Source of the DNA: Bryobacteraceae bacterium
GTDB taxonomy: Bacteria; Acidobacteriota; Terriglobia; Bryobacterales; Bryobacteraceae
Reading direction: 5' to 3'
Assembly: GCA_035295865.1 (NCBI GenBank)
Contig: DATGIH010000526.1
Span: forward strand, 14,066-78,065
Length of the DNA: 64,000 nucleotides
Below are positions 1-48,811 of this stretch, one piece after another. A model generated the notes under the pieces. That model ran no database searches, had not been told where the DNA came from, and saw only the letters and a program-made list of their open reading frames with translations. A program made the position numbers and the translations under genes. Each line of letters starts with the position of its first letter. Positions within the stretch are counted from its first letter, which is position 1.

Positions 1-1
1 C

Positions 2-1636
2 CAGCGTGAATACCGGACTATTCTCGCGACAGGACTGCGATTGTTGGCTGCGGCGCATCCCAAAGTAGTCGCGATCGACATGGTTTTGGAGGACCAGGCA
101 GGAGCAGCCGAAGACGATCCGCTGGAGCGGGCAATGCAGGCGACGAAGAATCTCGTGCTGGTGGCGCATCTGGCTGGCGATCGTTGGGAGCATCCGCTGG
201 CGAGGTTCGCCAAGTGGGCCGCTGCCGTGGGCCACGACAAAGCCGACGAGCTTTCGCACGATGGCGTGACGCGGCAGATCCCGCTTGAGCAGCGAACCGC
301 GCGTGAGAGGCATTGGGCGCTGTCGCTCGAAGCGTTTCGCTTGGCGCGCGGAGAGCGGATTCTCGAGTCGCCCGAGGAAATTCAAATCGGAAACCTGGTA
401 ATTCCCGCCGCGAGATCCGGCAAACTAAATCGTCCGCTGCGCGTTCTTTATTCAAAACGGCCGGAACAGATCTCGATCAAGCAACTCAATGATGATCCGA
501 AACTGGCGGCACGATTCACGGACAAAACCGTTTTCGTCGGCGTAACATCGGACACCGCGACTTATGATCGCGTTGACACGCCCTTCGGAGGCGGCCGGAT
601 TCCCGGCGTTGAAGTGCACGCGCAGCTTTTTGAAACTCTGGAGCGCGGGCATTTTTTGACCAACGCACCGGAATCATCCGTGCTCGGTTTTTGCCTGCTG
701 GCCGCGATTCTTGCAGCGTTGATTTTTGTCTTTCTGAGTGGATGGCCCGCTTATCTCGCTGCCGGAGCGCTTCTCATCGTCGCACACACCACGCCGTTCC
801 TACTTTTCCAACAAGGGATCGTGTTTCCATACCTCGCCCCGCTGGCTTCCGCGTGGCTGACCGTGGCTGCCGCCGCCAGTTATCAGCATTTCGTGGTGCG
901 TCGCGCGCTGCGCACTTCCGAAACCGAACGGAAGCGCTATCAGCAAGCGATTCATTTCGTCACGCATGAGATGCGCACTCCATTGACAGCCATCCAGGGA
1001 TCGAGCGAGCTGATGGGCCGCTATAACCTCAGCGAAGAAAAGCGCAAACAGATGACCGAGATGATCAACCAGGAATCGAAGCGTCTGGCGCGCATGATCC
1101 AAACGTTTCTGGATGTGGAGCGGCTCTCGGACGGTCAGATGGAGTTGAAGCGCGAGCCGTTCACCGCCAAAGAATTGGTGGAGAACTGTGTGGCGCGAGT
1201 GCGTCCGCTGGGCGAGCGCAAGAACATTCGGATCACTACCGGTGAACTCGCGGGAGCGCTCGAAGGGGATCGCGAACTGATGGAATACGCTGTCTACAAC
1301 CTAATGACGAACGCCGTGAAGTACTCGAACTCGGACACCGAAGTCACGGTCCGCTGCGTCACGGAGGCCGACCGCGTCCGTATTTCCGTCCAGGATCAAG
1401 GAATTGGGATGGATGCCAAAGAATTGCGCCAGATTTTTCAGAAATTCTACCGGACCAAGCGCGCGGAAGCGTCCGGCGAAAAGGGTACCGGCATTGGATT
1501 ATCGATTGTCGAGCAAATTGTTCAGCATCACGGTGGAAAAATGGAAGTCACCAGCCAGCCCGGCCGCGGATCCTGTTTCACCGCTGTTCTTCCGGCCCAC
1601 ATGCGTGCGCCGCAGCCGCCCGCTGTGTCAGTCTAG
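2..1636 (+). CDS. CHASE2-domain sensor histidine kinase (5' end cut by window edge)
   Basis: The frame stays open from nt 2, with no stop upstream of the TTG at 41. It has a CHASE2-like extracytoplasmic N-terminus and hydrophobic spans (VLGFCLLAAILAALIFVFL, AYLAAGALLIVAH, LAPLASAWLTVAAAASY). Kinase motifs present: H-box FVTHEMRTPLTAI, N-box YNLMTNAVKYS, G-boxes DQGIGM and GTGIGLSIV. Confidence 0.85.
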   Translation, partial: QREYRTILATGLRLLAAAHPKVVAIDMVLEDQAGAAEDDPLERAMQATKNLVLVAHLAGDRWEHPLARFAKWAAAVGHDKADELSHDGVTRQIPLEQRTARERHWALSLEAFRLARGERILESPEEIQIGNLVIPAARSGKLNRPLRVLYSKRPEQISIKQLNDDPKLAARFTDKTVFVGVTSDTATYDRVDTPFGGGRIPGVEVHAQLFETLERGHFLTNAPESSVLGFCLLAAILAALIFVFLSGWPAYLAAGALLIVAHTTPFLLFQQGIVFPYLAPLASAWLTVAAAASYQHFVVRRALRTSETERKRYQQAIHFVTHEMRTPLTAIQGSSELMGRYNLSEEKRKQMTEMINQESKRLARMIQTFLDVERLSDGQMELKREPFTAKELVENCVARVRPLGERKNIRITTGELAGALEGDRELMEYAVYNLMTNAVKYSNSDTEVTVRCVTEADRVRISVQDQGIGMDAKELRQIFQKFYRTKRAEASGEKGTGIGLSIVEQIVQHHGGKMEVTSQPGRGSCFTAVLPAHMRAPQPPAVSV

Positions 1637-28689: not shown

Positions 28690-29456
28690 CGAAGGAAGAA
28701 GTCCGCAACCGCCTGCTTTTCTATCAGGATCTAGGCGTAAAAACCGTTTATCGCCGAGGCAAATCGCTAATCCCGAACCCCGAGCCCCCAGTCCCGAGTC
28801 CCCAGCCCCAATCCCCAAGCCTCAAACCCTTCGTAGCCCGAAGCGCTGAGGTGTTGCCCGTAGTACTTCCGCTCGCTCCGGCTCATGACAATCTGCTCAA
28901 AATCAGCGAAGATATTGGTGACTGCAAACGGTGTCGCTTGCATGAGGGCAGGAATCGGATCGTGTTTGGTTCCGGCAATGAACAGGCGAAACTGGTGTTT
29001 GTAGGCGAAGGCCCAGGGGCCGACGAGGACGCGCAGGGATTGCCGTTCGTCGGCCGGGCCGGACAACTTCTCACGCAAATGATCGAAGGGACTGCCTCGA
29101 AGGAAGGCATCCCGCTCAAACGGCCCGACGTGTACATCTGCAACGTTGTAAAGTGCCGGCCTCCGGAAAACCGCACGCCGCAACCGGATGAGATGGAGAT
29201 CTGCGGCCAGTTCCTTTTCCGCCAGCTTGAGGCGATTCGTCCCAAAGCGATCTGCGCGCTCGGTTCCACGGCGGCCAAAGCCATTCTCGGAACCAAAGAT
29301 GGGGTCACGCGTTTACGCGGAAAATGGATGCAGTGGCGCGATATTCCGTTGATGGTCACTTACCATCCTTCTTATCTTCTTCGCCCCTACAATCAGAACG
29401 CGAAGAAAGAAGCTTGGGAAGACCTGAAGAAAGTCCTGCATTTTGTCTACGATTAG
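28686..29456 (+). CDS. Family 4 uracil-DNA glycosylase
   Basis: [40 protein letters not shown] and HPSYLLR motifs. The N-terminal linker is Pro-rich ([16 protein letters not shown]). Confidence 0.9.
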
Positions 29457-30102
29457 ACAACACAAAGGCCTCTTCATCACATTCGAAGGCCCCGACGGCA
29501 GCGGTAAAAGCACCCAAGCTCGGTTGTTTGCCGAGCGGCTCCGGCGCGAAGGGCACACGGTGCTCGAGTCCGTGGAACCGGGTGGAACGCCGATCGGCCA
29601 GCAGATCCGGCGCATCTTGCTCGATCCCGCGAATCAGGAACTGCGCGCGGTGCCCGAACTGTTGCTGATGTTCGCCGCGCGGGCGCAAAACGTGGAGCAG
29701 TCCATCTTGCCTGCGCTGCGCGAGGGCCACATCGTCGTCTCGGATCGCTTCACGGATTCTTCCATCGCCTATCAGGGCGCGGCGCGAGGCCTCGGTTGGG
29801 ACACGGTGCTCGAAGTGGATCGCATCGCCTGCCATGGTTTAGTTCCCGATTTGACCCTCTGCATCGACATCGATACGGAAACCGGATTGGCTCGCGCGCA
29901 TTCCCGCAATCTCGGCAATGTCAGGCAAGAGGCTCGCATCGACGAGCAGGCCGTGGAGTTCCATCACAAAGTCCGTGATGCCTACCACGAGCTGGCCCGG
30001 TGCGAGCCGGATCGCGTGCGCCTAATCGATGGCAGCGCATCTCAAGAAGAGGTCGCGGCCAAAGTGTGGGATGTCGCCGCGCCCTTGCTAGCGAGCCTTT
30101 GA
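29443..30102 (+). CDS. tmk: dTMP (thymidylate) kinase
   Basis: FITFEGPDGSGKSTQ P-loop and DRF motif. TTG start overlapping the UDG 3' end. Confidence 0.92.
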   Translation: MSTIRQHKGLFITFEGPDGSGKSTQARLFAERLRREGHTVLESVEPGGTPIGQQIRRILLDPANQELRAVPELLLMFAARAQNVEQSILPALREGHIVVSDRFTDSSIAYQGAARGLGWDTVLEVDRIACHGLVPDLTLCIDIDTETGLARAHSRNLGNVRQEARIDEQAVEFHHKVRDAYHELARCEPDRVRLIDGSASQEEVAAKVWDVAAPLLASL

Positions 30103-30118
30103 CACGGGGCTGCCGTGT
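30102..30118 (+). terminator. Weak hairpin after tmk stop (possible terminator)
   Basis: ACACGG-ggctg-CCGTGT (6-bp stem) overlaps the TGA stop. It is followed by gttct, with no real T-run. Confidence 0.25.
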
Positions 30119-30120
30119 GT

Positions 30121-30196
30121 TCTAACATGGCCATGTGGATCTAACATGGCCATGTTAAGTTAACATGGCCATGTTAAACAAACATCGCCACCATGC
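30121..30196 (+). promoter_or_regulatory. Operator-like array: 3.5 tandem 19-bp units carrying the palindrome AACATGGCCATGTT
   Basis: Unit 1, 30121-30139: tctAACATGGCCATGTgga. Unit 2, 30140-30158: tctAACATGGCCATGTTaa. Unit 3, 30159-30177: gTTAACATGGCCATGTTAA, an 18-bp perfect palindrome. A degenerate fourth unit at 30178-30196 (AACATcGCCAcc) overlaps the ATG at 30193. Confidence 0.7.
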
Positions 30197-31347
30197 AAGC
30201 TATATCCAGCTCCGATTACCGGGGCATTCTTGCCAACCTCTTTCAAAAAAGGGGCTGGCGGATTCTCAGTCTTCCTGCTGCCGCGGCCAACGGTGCGAAC
30301 CTGGCCGTCCAGGCCGGCAAAAATAAGTACATCGTTCAAATCAGGTCGGCCTCGGAGGGCCGCCGCGACCGTCTGATCTCTGTGCTCTCACAAGCTGTTC
30401 TCGAAGCTCAGTCGTCCGCCCGCCGCTTTCCCTCGTCCATCACCCCCCTGGCAGTGGTTGCCTCCAAGCGCGTGCCAGAATCGGTCGCGGATCAGCTCCA
30501 AGCGTTCGTGGAACAGAACGCTCCGGGCGTGGCTGTCGGAGTCATCGATTCCAGCGGGTTTCGCTCCTTTCGTGGCGCTGGCCTCGAACCGCTAAACGCA
30601 TCTCCCGCGCGCCTTCCTCGGAAGCAACCGAACTCGCCTCAACCCCTGGCCAATCTGTTCTCCGATCTAAACCAATGGATGCTAAAAATCCTTCTCGGTC
30701 AGAGTCTGCCCGAAAACCTGATTCGCGTCCCGCGGCAGCCGGTCGAAAATGCATCGCAACTGGCTGAAGCTGCCGAAGTGTCGGGCATGAGCGGGTCGCG
30801 ATTCGTAAACCAACTCGCGGCGCGCGGATTCTTGGATGAGAATGCGACTGAACTCAAGCTCGTCCGTCTCGAAGAACTGCTGGACCTGTGGGCTGCGGAC
30901 AAGCGGACTGCCATAAATGAAATACCGGCTCGTTGGATCATCAAGGCCGGACCGGATCAATTACGCGATGCCGTCCGGCGATACAGCTCGAAAGCGATTC
31001 GGAACCAGCCTCAATGCTGTTTGGGCCTCTTCGCCGCCGCCGATGTGCTGGGGCTCGGATTCGTTCGTGGAGCCCTGCCGCATCTTTATCTGGAACGCAT
31101 GACGCTCGATGCGATGAACCGGCTCGGCCTCGACTTCAGCAAGTCCAACCGTCCCGCCGACGTGATGGTGCGCATTCCTAGAAATCCGCAAGCCATCTTT
31201 CGCGCATCCGTGCAACGCGAAGGAATCTCGGTATCGGACGTACTGCAGATATGGCTCGATGTTTCGGCGCATCCCGGCCGGGGACGTGAACAGGCTCGTG
31301 AAATACGCCGCCGTGCGTTGAGCCCGTTGTTTAAAAAACGCAGATGA
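30193..31347 (+). CDS. AbiEi-like wHTH regulator/antitoxin candidate with extra N-terminal endonuclease-fold-like module
   Basis: Central HTH-like segment ASQLAEAAEVSGMSGSRFVNQLAARGFL. The C-terminal part (LGLFAAADVLGLGF..., PHLYLERMTLDAMNRLGL, ISVSDVLQIWLDVSAHPGRGREQAREI) resembles AbiEi C-domains. The N-terminal YRGILANLFQKRGWRI...ANLAV...YIVQIRSAS looks like a degenerate Mrr-type core. No SD upstream. Confidence 0.5.
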   Translation: MQAISSSDYRGILANLFQKRGWRILSLPAAAANGANLAVQAGKNKYIVQIRSASEGRRDRLISVLSQAVLEAQSSARRFPSSITPLAVVASKRVPESVADQLQAFVEQNAPGVAVGVIDSSGFRSFRGAGLEPLNASPARLPRKQPNSPQPLANLFSDLNQWMLKILLGQSLPENLIRVPRQPVENASQLAEAAEVSGMSGSRFVNQLAARGFLDENATELKLVRLEELLDLWAADKRTAINEIPARWIIKAGPDQLRDAVRRYSSKAIRNQPQCCLGLFAAADVLGLGFVRGALPHLYLERMTLDAMNRLGLDFSKSNRPADVMVRIPRNPQAIFRASVQREGISVSDVLQIWLDVSAHPGRGREQAREIRRRALSPLFKKRR

Positions 31348-32150
31348 CCGCAGCCAATCCATTCGCGCGTCTGCTGATGGCGCTCCAACCCTGGCTCCCC
31401 CACATCGTGATCGTGGGTGGCTGGGCGCACCAACTCTATCGACTCCATCCGCATGCACAATCGTTGAACTATCCGCCACTGAGTACCTTGGACACGGACA
31501 TCGCCCTTCCTCAGCGCACTCCCATGGGAGAGGAGGACATCCGTTCCCGTCTGCTCGGCCACGGCTTCTTCGAAGAATTCATGGGCGAGGACCACCCGCC
31601 CGCCACTCACTATCACTTGGGAGGCGACTCTTCCGGCTTCTACGCGGAGTTCCTCACTCCGCTTATCGGCAGCGAACTCGATCGCAGCAAGAAACGCAAA
31701 GCGACGGCGCGAATCGCCGGTGTTGCTTCGCAGCGGCTCCGCTTCATCGAGCTTTTACTGGATCAGCCGTGGTCCATCGGCTTCGAGCAAAGCAGTTTCA
31801 GAACTTCGGTTCAGATTGCCAACCCGGTCGCCTTCATCGCGCAGAAAGTTCTCATCCATGGAAAACGTGCGCGCCCGGACAGAGTCAAGGACATCCTCTA
31901 TATCCACGACACGCTCGAAGTCTTCGGTGCACGGCTGCCCGATCTCCACGAGTTGTGGCGGACCGCGGTGGCTCCGAAACTGCAGACCAGCAGTGCCCGC
32001 AAAGTCCTAGCCGCACCAAAGGAGCTTTTCCCGGAAGTGACCGATGACATTCGGAGTGCGGCGGAGATTTCGGTGGAGCGCGCGCTTTCGCCGGAGGAAA
32101 TCAGAGCCGCATGCCACTACGGCCTGTCGAGAATCTTCACGAGGAACTAA
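31344..32150 (+). CDS. Minimal nucleotidyltransferase-fold protein (AbiEii/DUF1814- or GSU2403-like toxin candidate)
   Basis: ATGA overlap with the upstream gene. NTase motifs: IVIVGGWAHQLY (hGG-x-A), TLDTDIAL (D-x-D), and AQKVLIHGKRARPDRVKDILYIHD (K...R...KD..D). Confidence 0.55.
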   Translation: MTAANPFARLLMALQPWLPHIVIVGGWAHQLYRLHPHAQSLNYPPLSTLDTDIALPQRTPMGEEDIRSRLLGHGFFEEFMGEDHPPATHYHLGGDSSGFYAEFLTPLIGSELDRSKKRKATARIAGVASQRLRFIELLLDQPWSIGFEQSSFRTSVQIANPVAFIAQKVLIHGKRARPDRVKDILYIHDTLEVFGARLPDLHELWRTAVAPKLQTSSARKVLAAPKELFPEVTDDIRSAAEISVERALSPEEIRAACHYGLSRIFTRN

Positions 32151-32592
32151 ATCGCGAAACGATGAAGAGCCCGCCGCCGATCGCGATGGCGTCTTCGATC
32201 AGCGCCACCGTGATATCGGGAAGCTTCCCCTTCGCTACGATGCGGCGCCTCGCCTGATATCCGCCAAACGTGCCGATCAGTGCTCCAACGACGCCTGCAA
32301 TGGCACCCGGCCAGGCGCTGAGCGCGAAGCCCGTTAGCCCGCCCATAATCAGCCGGTCAATCAAGGGACCCGGCTTGGTTCGCGCTCCAATCCAGGATTG
32401 TTTGTCCAGCACTAACTCAACCAGCGCAAGACCGGTAGAGATGTAGACCGCCAGGATTGTTCCAAGAAACGCGAGTTTCGTATCGCCCAGTGGTATCCAA
32501 CCCAGAAATCCCGCCCAGCACACAAGGGCGGGAGCGGTGAAAGATCGAAGACCGGCGACGATCCCAATAGCGAACGCGAGCAGCAAGGGCAT
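32137..32592 (-). CDS. DUF4126-like membrane protein
   Basis: Four hydrophobic helices. The N-terminal IVAGLRSFTAPALV pattern fits my recollection of DUF4126. It lies 11 nt downstream of the K+ channel gene. Confidence 0.5.
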   Translation of the reverse strand: MPLLLAFAIGIVAGLRSFTAPALVCWAGFLGWIPLGDTKLAFLGTILAVYISTGLALVELVLDKQSWIGARTKPGPLIDRLIMGGLTGFALSAWPGAIAGVVGALIGTFGGYQARRRIVAKGKLPDITVALIEDAIAIGGGLFIVSRFSSS

Positions 32593-45444: not shown

Positions 45445-46254
45445 ATGCGGCATTGGCTGGTTCCAACGGCTTTTTTCTTAGCCGCACCCTGCCTGCATGC
45501 GGTGGAGCTTCGAAAAGAAACAGCGGACGAGTTCGACAAATACATTTCGAATCTGGAATCCCGGCTCAGCCCGCGGTGGCACGGCGAGAATTTTCTCTGG
45601 TCCGATACATCGCCGCAGCGCGACCAGCTACAAAAAGGCAACGTCGTAGTGCAACCGGCCCATGGTAACGGAACCGTCACGCTCAAGAACGCGTTGATCC
45701 AAGACTGGATGGGCGCCATCTTCATCCCATCCGCCAATCTCGCCTCGGTGCTGGCGGTGGCCCAGGATTATGCGCGTCACGCTGAAATCTACAAGCCGGA
45801 AGTGGCCGCCGCTATCCTGCGGTCACGCACGGGAAACGATTTCAGCGTCTACATGCGCATCGTGAAATCGAAATTCTTTCTGACGGACGTGCTGAACACC
45901 GAACACGAGATCCATTTCGTCCCGCTCGATGGAAAGCGCGTTTACAGCAAGGCATACAGCACCCGAATCGCGGAGGTGAATGACCCCGGCTCAGAAAAAG
46001 AGCGCGAGCTCCCGGTTGGCAAAGACAGGGGATTGCTTTGGCGGCTCTACGGTTACTGGTTCTATGAAGAGCGCGACGGTGGAGTGATCGTGGAATGCGA
46101 ATCCATCACGCTCACGCGCGACGTCCCGTTTGGAATGGGACACTTGCTCTCGCCGATCGTCCACGGTCTGCCGGCCGAATCGCTGCGCAAAGGCTTAGAA
46201 TCCACTCGCCGCGCAGTGTTGAACCACCCGCAATCCCAAAACCCCAATCCCTAA
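45445..46254 (+). CDS. Secreted hypothetical protein
   Basis: Signal peptide MRHWLVPTAFFLAAPCLHA. No motif I can assign with confidence. The C-terminus (QSQNPNP) runs into the C-rich heptamer tract. Confidence 0.55.
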   Translation: MRHWLVPTAFFLAAPCLHAVELRKETADEFDKYISNLESRLSPRWHGENFLWSDTSPQRDQLQKGNVVVQPAHGNGTVTLKNALIQDWMGAIFIPSANLASVLAVAQDYARHAEIYKPEVAAAILRSRTGNDFSVYMRIVKSKFFLTDVLNTEHEIHFVPLDGKRVYSKAYSTRIAEVNDPGSEKERELPVGKDRGLLWRLYGYWFYEERDGGVIVECESITLTRDVPFGMGHLLSPIVHGLPAESLRKGLESTRRAVLNHPQSQNPNP

Positions 46255-46280
46255 TCCCTAATCCCTAATCCCCCAACCCC
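46231..46280. repeat. Heptamer microsatellite (AATCCCT)n / G-quadruplex-type tract on the gyrA sense strand
   Basis: Sequence: caatcccaaaaccccaatccctaatccctaatccctaatcccccaacccc. It contains seven C-runs of 3-5 nt with 2-4 nt spacers. It spans the last codons of the + gene and the whole 25-bp gap before the gyrA stop. Confidence 0.8.
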
Positions 46281-48811
46281 TACTGCAGCGGCAACTGTCC
46301 CTCACCGCCGTTCGCCGTCCCGTTCTCATCCGGGACCACCGAAGCGGCGGCCGCCAGGTCGCCATCGTCCATGCGAACCAGCCGCACGCCTTGCGTCGAC
46401 CGGCCGGCTTGCCGGATCTCGCCCGATTCCAGGCGAATGATCTTGCCGTCCTTGGTGATGATCATCAGATCGGTGTCTTCCTTCACCGAAAGAATCGCCA
46501 CCACTTTGCCGATCTTGGGCGTCACCTTCATGTTGATCACGCCCTTGCCGCCGCGCGCTGTTAGCCGGTAATCCTCAAGCGGGGTGCGCTTGCCGTAACC
46601 GTGCTCGGAGATCGAAAGAATCAATCCTTCTTTCTCCACCACTTCGGCGCCGATGATATGATCGCCTTCCGCCAGATCCATCGCTCGTACGCCGCGCGCC
46701 GGACGGCCCATCGCGCGCACTTCTTTCTCGTGGAAGCGGATCGCTTTGCCGTCGTGCGTTCCCAGGAAAATGTAGTTTTCGCCGTTGGTCAGCCGCGCGC
46801 CCAGCAGCTCATCGTTGTCATCCAGCGACACGGCGATAATCCCGCGCGACATCGGATTGTCGAACTCCGTCAGCTCGCACTTCTTGATCACGCCTTGCTT
46901 GGTTACCATCACGATGTTCTGTCCGGCGACGAAATCCTTCACCGGCAGGAAAGTTTTCGCGGCTTCATCCGGCTGCAGATTCACCAGGCTCGATACATGT
47001 TTGCCCTTGCCCGTGGTTCCCGCATCCGGAATTTCATAGATCTTCAGCCAGTAAACGCGGCCCTTGGTGGTGAACACCAGCAGATAGGCGTGCGTGGACG
47101 CGACCACGAGATGCTCAACCACATCCTCGGTGCGGGTCCCCATCCCGATGCGGCCCTTGCCGCCGCGGGATTGCCGGCGATACGTGTCCACCGCGGTTCT
47201 CTTCAGATACCCGCCGTGCGTCACCGTCACCGCGACATCCTCCACCTGGATCAGATCCTCCAGATGAATCTCGCCGGTGTCTTCGATGATTTGCGTGCGG
47301 CGCTCGTCCCCGAACTCCTTCTGGACTTCCTTCAACTCCTGCACGATGATGGAGCGCAGTTTTTTGTCGGACGCCAGAATCTCAAGGTACTCGGCGATCT
47401 CCACTTGAATGGCGGCCAATTCGTCGATGATCTTCTGGATCTCCATGCCGGTCAGGCGCTGGAGCTGAAGTTCGATGATGGCTTGCGCCTGCTTTTCGGT
47501 GAACTGGAAGCGCGCGATTAATCCGTCGCGGGCCTCTTTGGGAGTCCCGGCCGCGCGGATCAATTTGATCACGGCATCCAGATTCTCGATGGCTTTCTTG
47601 AATCCGAGCAGGATATGCTCGCGTTCGCGCGCTTTGCGCAGCAAGTAGTCCGTGCGGCGCCGCACCACTTCGATGCGGTGATCGATGAAGCGCTTCAGGA
47701 CGTCCACCAGACCAAGCTCGCGCGGCTGCCCGTTCACGATGGACAGCATGATCACGCCGAAATTGATCTGGAGCTGTGTGTGCTTGTATAGGTTGTTCAG
47801 CACCACTTCGGCCTGCTCGCCGCGCTTCAGCTCAAACACGATCCGCATACCGTCGCGGTCGCTCTCATCCCGGATTTCCGAGATCCCCTCAATCTTTTTG
47901 TCGTTTACCAGGCCGGCCGTAGTCTCAATCAGCCGGGCTTTGTTCACCTGATAGGGAATTTCGGTCACCACAATCGCTTCGCGATCCTTGCCGAATGCCT
48001 CGGTGGCGGCCTTGGCGCGCAGCTTCAACGTGCCGCGGCCTTTGGTGAAATAATCCAGGATGCCTTGCCGCCCCAAGATATATCCGGCGGTCGGGAAATC
48101 CGGACCCTGCACCAGATTCACGATCTCACTCGCGTGGGTGTCCGGCTTCTGCACCAGCAAAATCGTAGCGTTGATAATTTCGGTGAGGTTGTGCGGCGGA
48201 ATATTGGTCGCCATGCCGACCGCGATTCCTGACGATCCGTTGATTAGCAAATTCGGCACGCGCGTCGGCAAAACTTCCGGCTCGACGCGCCGTTCGTCGA
48301 AGTTCGGGCGAAAATCCACGGTCTCTTTATCCAGATCTTCGAGCAGCGCGGTATCGATGCGCGAAAGCCGGGCTTCCGTGTATCGATAGGCCGCCGGCGG
48401 ATCGCCATCCACCGAGCCGAAATTTCCCTGCCCATCGATCAGCGGATAGCGCAGCGAAAAATCCTGCGCCATGCGCACCAACGCGTCGTAAACCGGAATG
48501 TCGCCGTGCGGATGGTAATTGCCCAGCACCTCACCGACGATGCCCGCGCACTTGCGGTAGGCGCGGTTGAACGACAAACCCATCTCGGACATGGCGTACA
48601 GAATCCGCCGGTGGACGGGTTTCAAACCGTCGCGAATGTCCGGCAGTGCGCGCCCGATGATCACACTCATCGCGTAATCCAGATACGACCGGCGCATCTC
48701 ATCTTCGATATTGATGGGGATGATGTTCTGCCGGCCCTCACCGCCTAAAGGCATTTGCGAGCCGCCCGTGGGCGGCGTAGTCGGGGTATTCGGATCTTCC
48801 GGATTAGCCAA
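46280..48811 (-). CDS. gyrA: DNA gyrase subunit A
   Basis: [16 protein letters not shown], the active-site tyrosine context [10 protein letters not shown], the HPHGD QRDR region, and C-terminal beta-pinwheel repeats. Confidence 0.98.

Follow-up and report, generated by a model that had tools for sequence, protein, structure and literature searches.

AbiE of Streptococcus agalactiae, formed by AbiEi and AbiEii, is a type IV toxin-antitoxin (TA) and abortive-infection system whose regulator, built of a DNA-binding and a C-terminal domain, represses its own promoter via repeats that overlap this promoter; the operator consists of two 23-bp inverted repeats 3 bp apart, with a monomer on each (PMC3985639, PMC7319586). 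In the Rv2827c-Rv2826c system of Mycobacterium tuberculosis the antitoxin autoregulates at four tandem 23-bp repeats, set in two pairs with 13-bp and 4-bp gaps, and negative cooperativity has been measured at these repeats (PMC7319586). Here we report on a tandem array of palindromes that precedes a two-gene cassette (genes A and NT) in a 64,000-nt stretch of DNA from a Bryobacteraceae bacterium (contig DATGIH010000526.1, positions 14,066 to 78,065; the whole stretch is called the window below). Our analysis of the sequence indicates that the array is probably the operator of the cassette's own sigma70-type promoter, at which protein A would autorepress the A-NT operon. The cassette has in common with AbiE that it is bicistronic, with the gene of a winged helix-turn-helix (wHTH) regulator first and that of a DNA-polymerase-beta-superfamily nucleotidyltransferase second, the two being closely coupled. 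As in AbiE, the regulator has DNA-binding and C-terminal domains and repeats overlap the promoter, autorepression being predicted here.

Direct reading of the sequence places four units at 30123-30195, with dyad centres exactly 19 bp apart and a perfect CATGGCCATG core in three of them; Tandem Repeats Finder (TRF) reports a period of 19 with 3.7 copies at 30121-30190. The original prediction, made from the letters alone, had described three copies spaced by 19 bp, the third extended to a perfect 18-bp palindrome, and a fourth unit in the same register that overlaps the ATG at 30193. All of this was confirmed, the coordinates (30124, 30143, 30162, 30181) being right and the fourth unit degenerate. 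O1 and O2 have a common left flank and O2 and O3 a common right flank, which together with the three perfect cores suggests that the units of this array have recently been homogenised. At up to two mismatches AACATGGCCATGTT has 3 matches in the window against 0.22 expected, a number reached in none of 100 shuffles. In the whole 6.35-Mb genome the 12-mer ACATGGCCATGT occurs at these three places only, and elsewhere there is a single 14-mer with one mismatch, within an ABC-ATPase coding sequence. The genome search for further sites that had been proposed with the prediction therefore found none beyond the array, and a generic dispersed repeat is ruled out, the motif being unique in the genome and its lone near-match lying in coding sequence.

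The array is in register with a promoter. TTGACA-18-TAACAT matches a sigma70-type promoter at 10 of 12 positions in the promoter scan, so that -35 and -10 boxes, a spacer within 16-18 bp and an operator over the -10 box or +1 are all present in the window. We infer a transcription start at ~30135-30137. O1 spans the -10 box and the predicted +1 site, and the predicted leader of ~57 nt up to the ATG is filled by O2-O4. No terminator-like site lies between the upstream gene tmk and the array. The absence of a Shine-Dalgarno (SD) sequence before the open reading frame (ORF), to which the original prediction had drawn attention, holds for the window (start region gttaaacaaacatcgccaccATG) and not for the family, since an SD-like motif precedes gene A in 31 of 79 relatives; a leaderless mRNA, which it had also brought up, is unlikely because the predicted promoter gives the leader just described. 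Within the promoter spacer, at 30102-30118, there is also an inverted repeat ACACGG(N5)CCGTGT, which resembles a degenerate half-site (CACGG) and is not conserved in L001-L003, three of the related loci.

The same arrangement is found across the family. Protein A has more than 2,300 matches in a database clustered at 90% identity, and 970 clusters at 50% identity (E <= 1e-3), distributed over Acidobacteriota and plasmids of Burkholderia and Paraburkholderia. For comparison, the best 80 of at least 314 species genomes with a relative of gene A, almost all Acidobacteriota, were used; 130 bp of upstream sequence were extracted per locus, and units were analysed with free spacing. The layout is near-universal in these loci (43-73% protein identity): TTGACA, a 17-18 bp spacer to a -10 equivalent TA(A/T/C)CAT, and tandem palindromic units with the consensus T-A-n-C-A-T-G-G-C-C-A-T-G-n-T-A. 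In most loci the TTGACA-like box lies 26-27 bp 5' of the first core, and the last unit usually ends at most ~20 bp from the start codon. Three units are present in 47 loci, four in 17 and two in 13. Spacing between units is 18 bp in 139 of 162 cases; 19 bp throughout is seen only in the window and in L001, its closest syntenic relative (72% identity), and both have a weak fourth unit. Information content is graded, unit 1 carrying 25.8 bits, unit 2 23.6 and unit 3 20.2. Length varies only in the gaps between units and never inside the 10-bp core, which fits one dimer per unit. Even upstream of a homologue with 31% identity on a plasmid of Paraburkholderia phenoliruptrix BR3459a (L122) there is an array, matching O2 at 14 of 16 bases; across phyla the operator is almost constant while protein A diverges to 31% identity. 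In another relative (L088:1201-1245) the start codon as called for the A homologue falls within the operator array of that gene (TTCATGGCCAAGAA x3), and judging from the sequence this annotated start is probably too far upstream.

Protein A is suited to read such sites. AlphaFold models (predicted local distance difference test score, pLDDT, of 86 over the full length, and of 91 when residues 152-384 are modelled) show an N-terminal PD-(D/E)xK domain, a linker, a wHTH and a C-terminal domain (Table 1). The wHTH finds fold matches in the DNA-binding domains of IclR, MarR, CRP and RbkR, and Pfam matches among 67 relatives are to MarR (32), HTH_Crp_2 (31) and HTH_IclR (25). The wHTH-like segment attributed to the adjacent gene by the original prediction is thereby borne out. 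Wherever the core CATGGCCATG is invariant, the recognition helix motif V196 S197 x M199 S200 A201 x R203 (VS-MSA-R) hardly varies. Helices of this main type at 31-36% identity (L089, L090, L122) go with a retained TAnCATGGCC-type operator. In Burkholderia contaminans the helix is VSVMTATR and the array counts five 18-bp units, whose core is CATG(T/C)GCATG, and helices VS-P(S/T)A-R, VSDASASK and VSVATASR go with 18-bp-spaced units that have other cores or flanks. A simple rule that pairs helix M/P with flank TAnC/TTC was tried and dropped, because the flanks in L082 (VSVPTTAR) are TA-T-CGTG and the CATGGCCATG core is retained in L086.

The N-terminal domain has the restriction-endonuclease-like fold, its top fold matches in the PDB being Hjc 1gef, 2okf and PspGI (probability 0.95-1.0), and Pfam matches to Mrr_cat and Hjc were obtained for 51 and 21 of the 67 relatives, respectively. 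The catalytic D..ExK residues are largely kept in these relatives (D in 60, E in 45 and K in 63 of 67), and all three are changed in the window's protein A. As this protein, without catalytic residues, keeps the array, its sequence implies that nuclease activity cannot be required for array retention. For the C-terminal domain there are weak fold matches to the small 'putative nucleotidyltransferase' structures 2ewr and 4ok0 (E ~0.4); homology of this domain to NT was considered and rejected (hhalign probability 0.4%). The window's protein A itself has no match in Pfam, NCBIfam or PADLOC and no sequence match among solved structures, and neither single proteins nor profiles produced a useful match when searched against the sequences of the PDB. 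RefSeq names in the family are 'hypothetical', 'RpiR family transcriptional regulator' and 'GSU2403 family nucleotidyltransferase fold protein'. An A-like module also occurs as a fusion: L085:977-4174 (P0207) encodes 1065 amino acids, in which NERD and an Eco57I-like (methyltransferase / restriction) part precede a complete A-like module (691-1057), and no operator array is visible upstream of this fusion gene.

The array goes with gene A and not with its surroundings. NT lies 3' of gene A in 71 of the 80 loci, mostly with the same 4-bp overlap, an ATGA at 31344-31347 in the window that sets the NT start on the gene A stop. At least six loci, including that of the cultured Paludibaculum fermentans (L065), have gene A with a good three-unit array and no adjacent NT; the loci listed with gene A, an intact array and no adjacent NT are L018, L025, L032, L054, L065, L071 and L077. 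Among the 80 loci, L001 and L008 alone have the same flanking genes as the window, the flanks being different elsewhere, and the cassette is present in three of 13 genomes of the same genus. In two genomes of this genus that are without it (G011 and G004), tmk abuts the convergent DUF4126 gene. In the junction alignment the window is homologous to the empty site up to ...GGGATGT (30074) and again from CTAAATCGCGAAAC (32147-32160). Varying flanks, patchiness and empty sites together assign the array to the cassette rather than to tmk, and the aligned sequences show promoter, operator and both genes as one insertion of ~2 kb. This two-gene family is apparently mobile.

In the reading that we favour, protein A dimers would bind each 16-bp palindrome (half-sites TAnCATGG and CCATGnTA) through the central wHTH. 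Protein A on O1 would cover the -10 box and the start site and thereby block RNA polymerase; O2, O3 and the weak O4 would coat the ~57-bp leader as far as the start codon, and occupancy of these downstream sites would add repression. As no terminator separates tmk from the array, the array would probably also form a roadblock, holding up transcription that reads through from tmk and its operon. The outcome would be negative autoregulation of a translationally coupled A-NT operon, in an organisation of the AbiE type (type IV TA / abortive infection). We infer binding by protein A, its dimers, repression, the roadblock, and a role of NT as a toxin that A neutralises. A spacing of 18 bp turns each dyad by about -100 degrees relative to its neighbour, and one of 19 bp by about -70 degrees, so that bound dimers would spiral round the DNA and not align on one face. 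To bind cooperatively they would have to make flexible contacts, and the N-terminal domain, tethered by the linker, is a candidate for these. The original prediction was right that 19-bp spacing puts successive sites on different faces of the helix, and the family's 18 bp is out of phase as well. Its central proposal, a multi-site operator through which the adjacent gene product autorepresses, is supported at the level of sequence by the promoter overlap, the conservation over ~80 loci, the arrays without NT, the wHTH and the match between helix and core.

Several observations weigh against this reading. Spacings of 18 and 19 bp are both out of helical phase, so that simple side-by-side cooperative binding is not obviously favoured. 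One group of loci, of the Sulfotelmatobacter type, is without a recognisable -35 box at the expected place. The trend between helix and operator, which fits protein A reading the sites, comes from ~12 distant loci, uncorrected for phylogeny, and L086, with the variant helix VSVPTASR, keeps the main-type core. In the distant L083 and L084 two units mirror each other about their junction, so that protein A might bind there in a register and stoichiometry other than one dimer per unit. Finally, in an alignment of 40 distinct gap-free 54-nt operators, pairing between units 2 and 3 reaches 78.7% against 75.9% in shuffles, with covariation of 0.179 against 0.134 (1 of 500 shuffles).

This last signal bears on the possibility that the element is mainly RNA, units 2 and 3 of the leader forming a long hairpin through which translation or the stability of the mRNA is controlled and the DNA palindromes being a by-product. 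The window's leader is indeed predicted to fold into a 16-bp hairpin of unit 2 with unit 3 (-26.1 kcal/mol, z = -5.2), but such a fold is inevitable for any two adjacent identical palindromes. A shuffle rank of the kind just given is, by the tool's own warning, reached by 5-25% of unstructured alignments of related sequences, and most of the compensated pairs (G34·C39) trace to a single clade of Bryobacteraceae. Pairing of unit 1 with unit 2 is not significant (35 and 89 of 500 shuffles), the frequent CAC/CGC variants of the left half disrupt RNA pairing, and unit 1, the best conserved of all, lies mostly upstream of the predicted start site. The hairpin of units 2 and 3 also leaves the start codon uncovered and is followed by no U-run. 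Hairpins within units were ruled out, for in the same 40 operators they show no covariation above shuffles (74.6% of cells paired, equal to the shuffle mean); the symmetry of the units therefore reflects conserved half-sites, as expected for a protein-binding palindrome, and the units are to be taken as DNA sites. A mainly RNA-based element is thus unlikely, and the signal between units 2 and 3 hints weakly at a secondary RNA feature or at symmetry about the junction.

Binding of the sites not by A but by a host regulator or by NT alone appears very improbable. NT is predicted to be always co-transcribed with A in intact cassettes, but the array is kept with gene A alone where NT is absent, and NT matches no DNA-binding domain family in Pfam. 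As to a host regulator, the array is the sole occurrence of the motif in the genome, which sets it outside any host regulon, and the motif travels with the cassette among unrelated contexts and phyla. Least credible of all is a function of the palindromes as recognition or cleavage sites for the PD-(D/E)xK domain in mobility, homing or recombination, for although A has a Mrr_cat/Hjc-like domain with D..ExK mostly intact in relatives, and the module is a precise, patchy insertion with short junction repeats and no integrase that carries the array at its extreme left end, the window's protein A without all three catalytic residues has the most perfect array in the family, there is no second array at the right end of the module, and the register of the array to the -35/-10 boxes and the start codon is fixed in all loci, which a role in transcription explains directly.

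Autorepression by protein A at its own operator may be extended into a broader picture, which we regard as doubtful. Operator and protein A would then make up a portable insulator-switch, with which a minimal 2-kb toxin module, reaching from promoter to stop codon, could insert at practically any site, the tail of a housekeeping operon included; three or four tightly packed dimers between the -10 box and the start codon would stop both the module's own promoter and read-through. The PD-(D/E)xK domain could serve as sensor or trigger (e.g. for invader DNA), or as a mobility function, of an unrecognised defence/TA family.

Table 1. Features of the cassette, domains of protein A and operator units. 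Positions are those of the window or, for protein A, of residues.
Feature	Position	Strand	Sequence	Description
Inserted module	30075..32150	+		~2 kb, starting just 5' of the -35 box and ending with the NT stop; from empty-site comparison
-35 box	30099..30104	+	TTGACA	promoter scan; overlaps tmk stop TGA (30100-30102)
-10 box	30123..30128	+	TAACAT	left half of O1; 18-bp spacer from the -35 box
O1	30123-30138		TAACATGGCCATGTGG	core perfect, right flank imperfect; covers -10 box and predicted start site
O2	30142-30157		TAACATGGCCATGTTA	perfect 16-bp palindrome
O3	30160-30177		TTAACATGGCCATGTTAA	perfect 18-bp palindrome
O4	30180-30195		AAACATCGCCACCATG	degenerate, in 19-bp register, 3 core mismatches; start codon (30193-30195) inside
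Possible alternative register			CCATGTTAA(G)TTAACATGG	junction-centred sequence, possible alternative to the single 16-bp unit
Gene A	30193..31347	+		384 aa; putative repressor / antitoxin-like component
Gene NT	31344..32150	+		268 aa; PF12281 (NTP_transf_8, 'GSU2403 family') nucleotidyltransferase-fold protein, putative toxin
Protein A, N-terminal domain	1-135			PD-(D/E)xK (Mrr_cat/Hjc-like) alpha/beta fold; catalytic positions N36, Q49, R51
Protein A, linker	~140-151			disordered
Protein A, wHTH	~183-216		VSGMSGSRFVNQL	helices 187-194 and 198-210; sequence is the recognition helix
Protein A, C-terminal domain	~240-384			alpha/beta
L122 units			TAACATGGCCGTGTTA / AGATGGCCATGTTA / TAACGTGGCCAAGTGA	18-bp spacing
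Divergent operator units			TTCATGACCATGA, TCGTGTGCACGA, TTCCTGTCCACGAA/TTCGTGTACAGGAA, TTCACATCTATGAA/TTCATGGATGTGAA	loci with variant helices

Upstream of the cassette lie coaBC (dfp), a family-4 UDG gene and tmk, linked by overlaps. Both neighbours have been remodelled by the insertion. At the 3' end of tmk (30075-30102) this shows in its last ~9 codons being different from those of the empty-site relatives and its stop now lying in the -35 box; on the other side the convergent DUF4126 ORF overlaps the 3' end of NT by 14 bp (32137-32150). Short repeats are found at the junctions, GCTAG (30087-30091) and CTAA (32147-32150) in the window and GCTAAA..CGCG in L001. Two further repeats of the window were reported by TRF, AATCCCT x5.9 (ACCCCAATCCCTAA x3.9) at 46226-46282 and CCCCGAG-type repeats of 7/14 bp at 28771-28829, in the 5' part of the UDG gene.

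The neighbours of other cassettes are of several kinds. In the metagenomic L090:342-2696 (36% identity) a cassette of A and a PF12281 gene directly precedes a BREX PglY/BrxC gene and overlaps it by 4 bp, which suggests from gene order a defence-island context for at least some members of the family. Transposases of insertion sequences (IS66, rve, DDE_Tnp_ISAZ013) adjoin cassettes in L123 (a B. contaminans plasmid), L081, L084 and L089; in L089 such an element apparently stands in place of the NT gene, and L123 also has a RES-family NAD+ phosphorylase and a phospholipase D family protein as neighbours. PHROGs and a phage collection gave no match, and a viral fold library returned nothing informative.

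The NT protein (P0002) matches PF12281 with 78.3 bits against a cut-off of 26.3 (E 1.1e-21), and the same family, with no other Pfam family, was found in 39 of 39 aligned NT partners; those of the Burkholderia type are named 'GSU2403 family nucleotidyltransferase fold protein' in RefSeq. Invariant or nearly so are G25 G26, D50, D52, K168...R175 and K182 D183..Y186..D189. NT has no match in PADLOC or NCBIfam, its family profile has none among solved structures, and a single-sequence search of the PDB returned one weak match only, to the esterase PMGL3 (E 0.031).

Full-text literature searches found no paper on PF12281, on NTP_transf_8, on this gene pair or on the combination of Mrr_cat, nucleotidyltransferase and toxin-antitoxin, and a single incidental mention of GSU2403. 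The mechanism of autorepression is most likely ordinary, of an antitoxin type that is already well known, and the gene-pair family most likely new to the literature. Our results assign a concrete regulatory element to a widespread and unstudied gene pair, and its near-constant operator is a ready-made DNA probe. The family also offers a natural variant series for packed winged-helix dimers, with 18 against 19 bp, two to five units, and alternative cores and helices. Its signature (TTGACA, 17-18 bp, three TAnCATGGCCATGnTA units) can be used for finding cassettes and for correcting miscalled starts such as that of L088.

How close does the cassette stand to the described systems? The AbiE toxin is defined by motifs I-IV, with hG[GS]-x(9-15)-DhD, KLxAaxxR and +DxxD (PMC3985639). 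NT has GG, DxD, K-x6-R and KD..D in the same order, but the gap between GG and DxD is 23 residues and motif IV reads KDxLYxxD instead of +DxxD. NT belongs to PF12281 and AbiEii to DUF1814/PF08843; the window's genome has no PF08843 match, and hhalign gives NT a probability of 0.3% against AbiEii proteins from related genomes. Protein A of the window has no AbiEi match in Pfam at E up to 10 and stays below 0.5% in hhalign against AbiEi of related genomes; among its relatives one of 67 has a weak AbiEi_2 match (E 0.026). Neither AbiEi nor Rv2827c is among the top 50 fold matches of protein A, and the PADLOC models for AbiE find no match in the cassette. Membership in AbiE was rejected, Pfam, PADLOC, hhalign and fold search all being negative. 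Protein A further differs from AbiEi by an extra N-terminal PD-(D/E)xK domain and by a wHTH that is central rather than N-terminal, and the cassette operator, with three or four 16-bp palindromes at a period of 18-19 bp, is built differently from that of AbiE.

MenAT (MenA/MenT) of M. tuberculosis pairs a small nucleotidyltransferase toxin with the cognate antitoxin gene upstream, MenT being a DUF1814 protein. No homology between NT (PF12281) and the DUF1814 family of MenT was detected; by analogy, the similar pairing suggests nucleotide addition to tRNA as a plausible activity of NT. With Rv2827c-Rv2826c, whose protein families differ from those of the cassette, the array shares that the repeats span the promoter and start region and are graded in conservation or affinity, conservation in the cassette falling from unit 1 over unit 2 to unit 3. 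Lambdoid phages have three adjacent palindromic dimer sites of unequal strength that overlap promoters (OR1-OR3, OL1-OL3); the lambda sites are 17 bp long, are separated by spacers of 3-7 bp and control divergent promoters as a switch. The cassette has a similar three-site layout, but its spacers are 2-3 bp, and its sites lie on one side of the -35 box and reach the start codon of the regulator's own gene.

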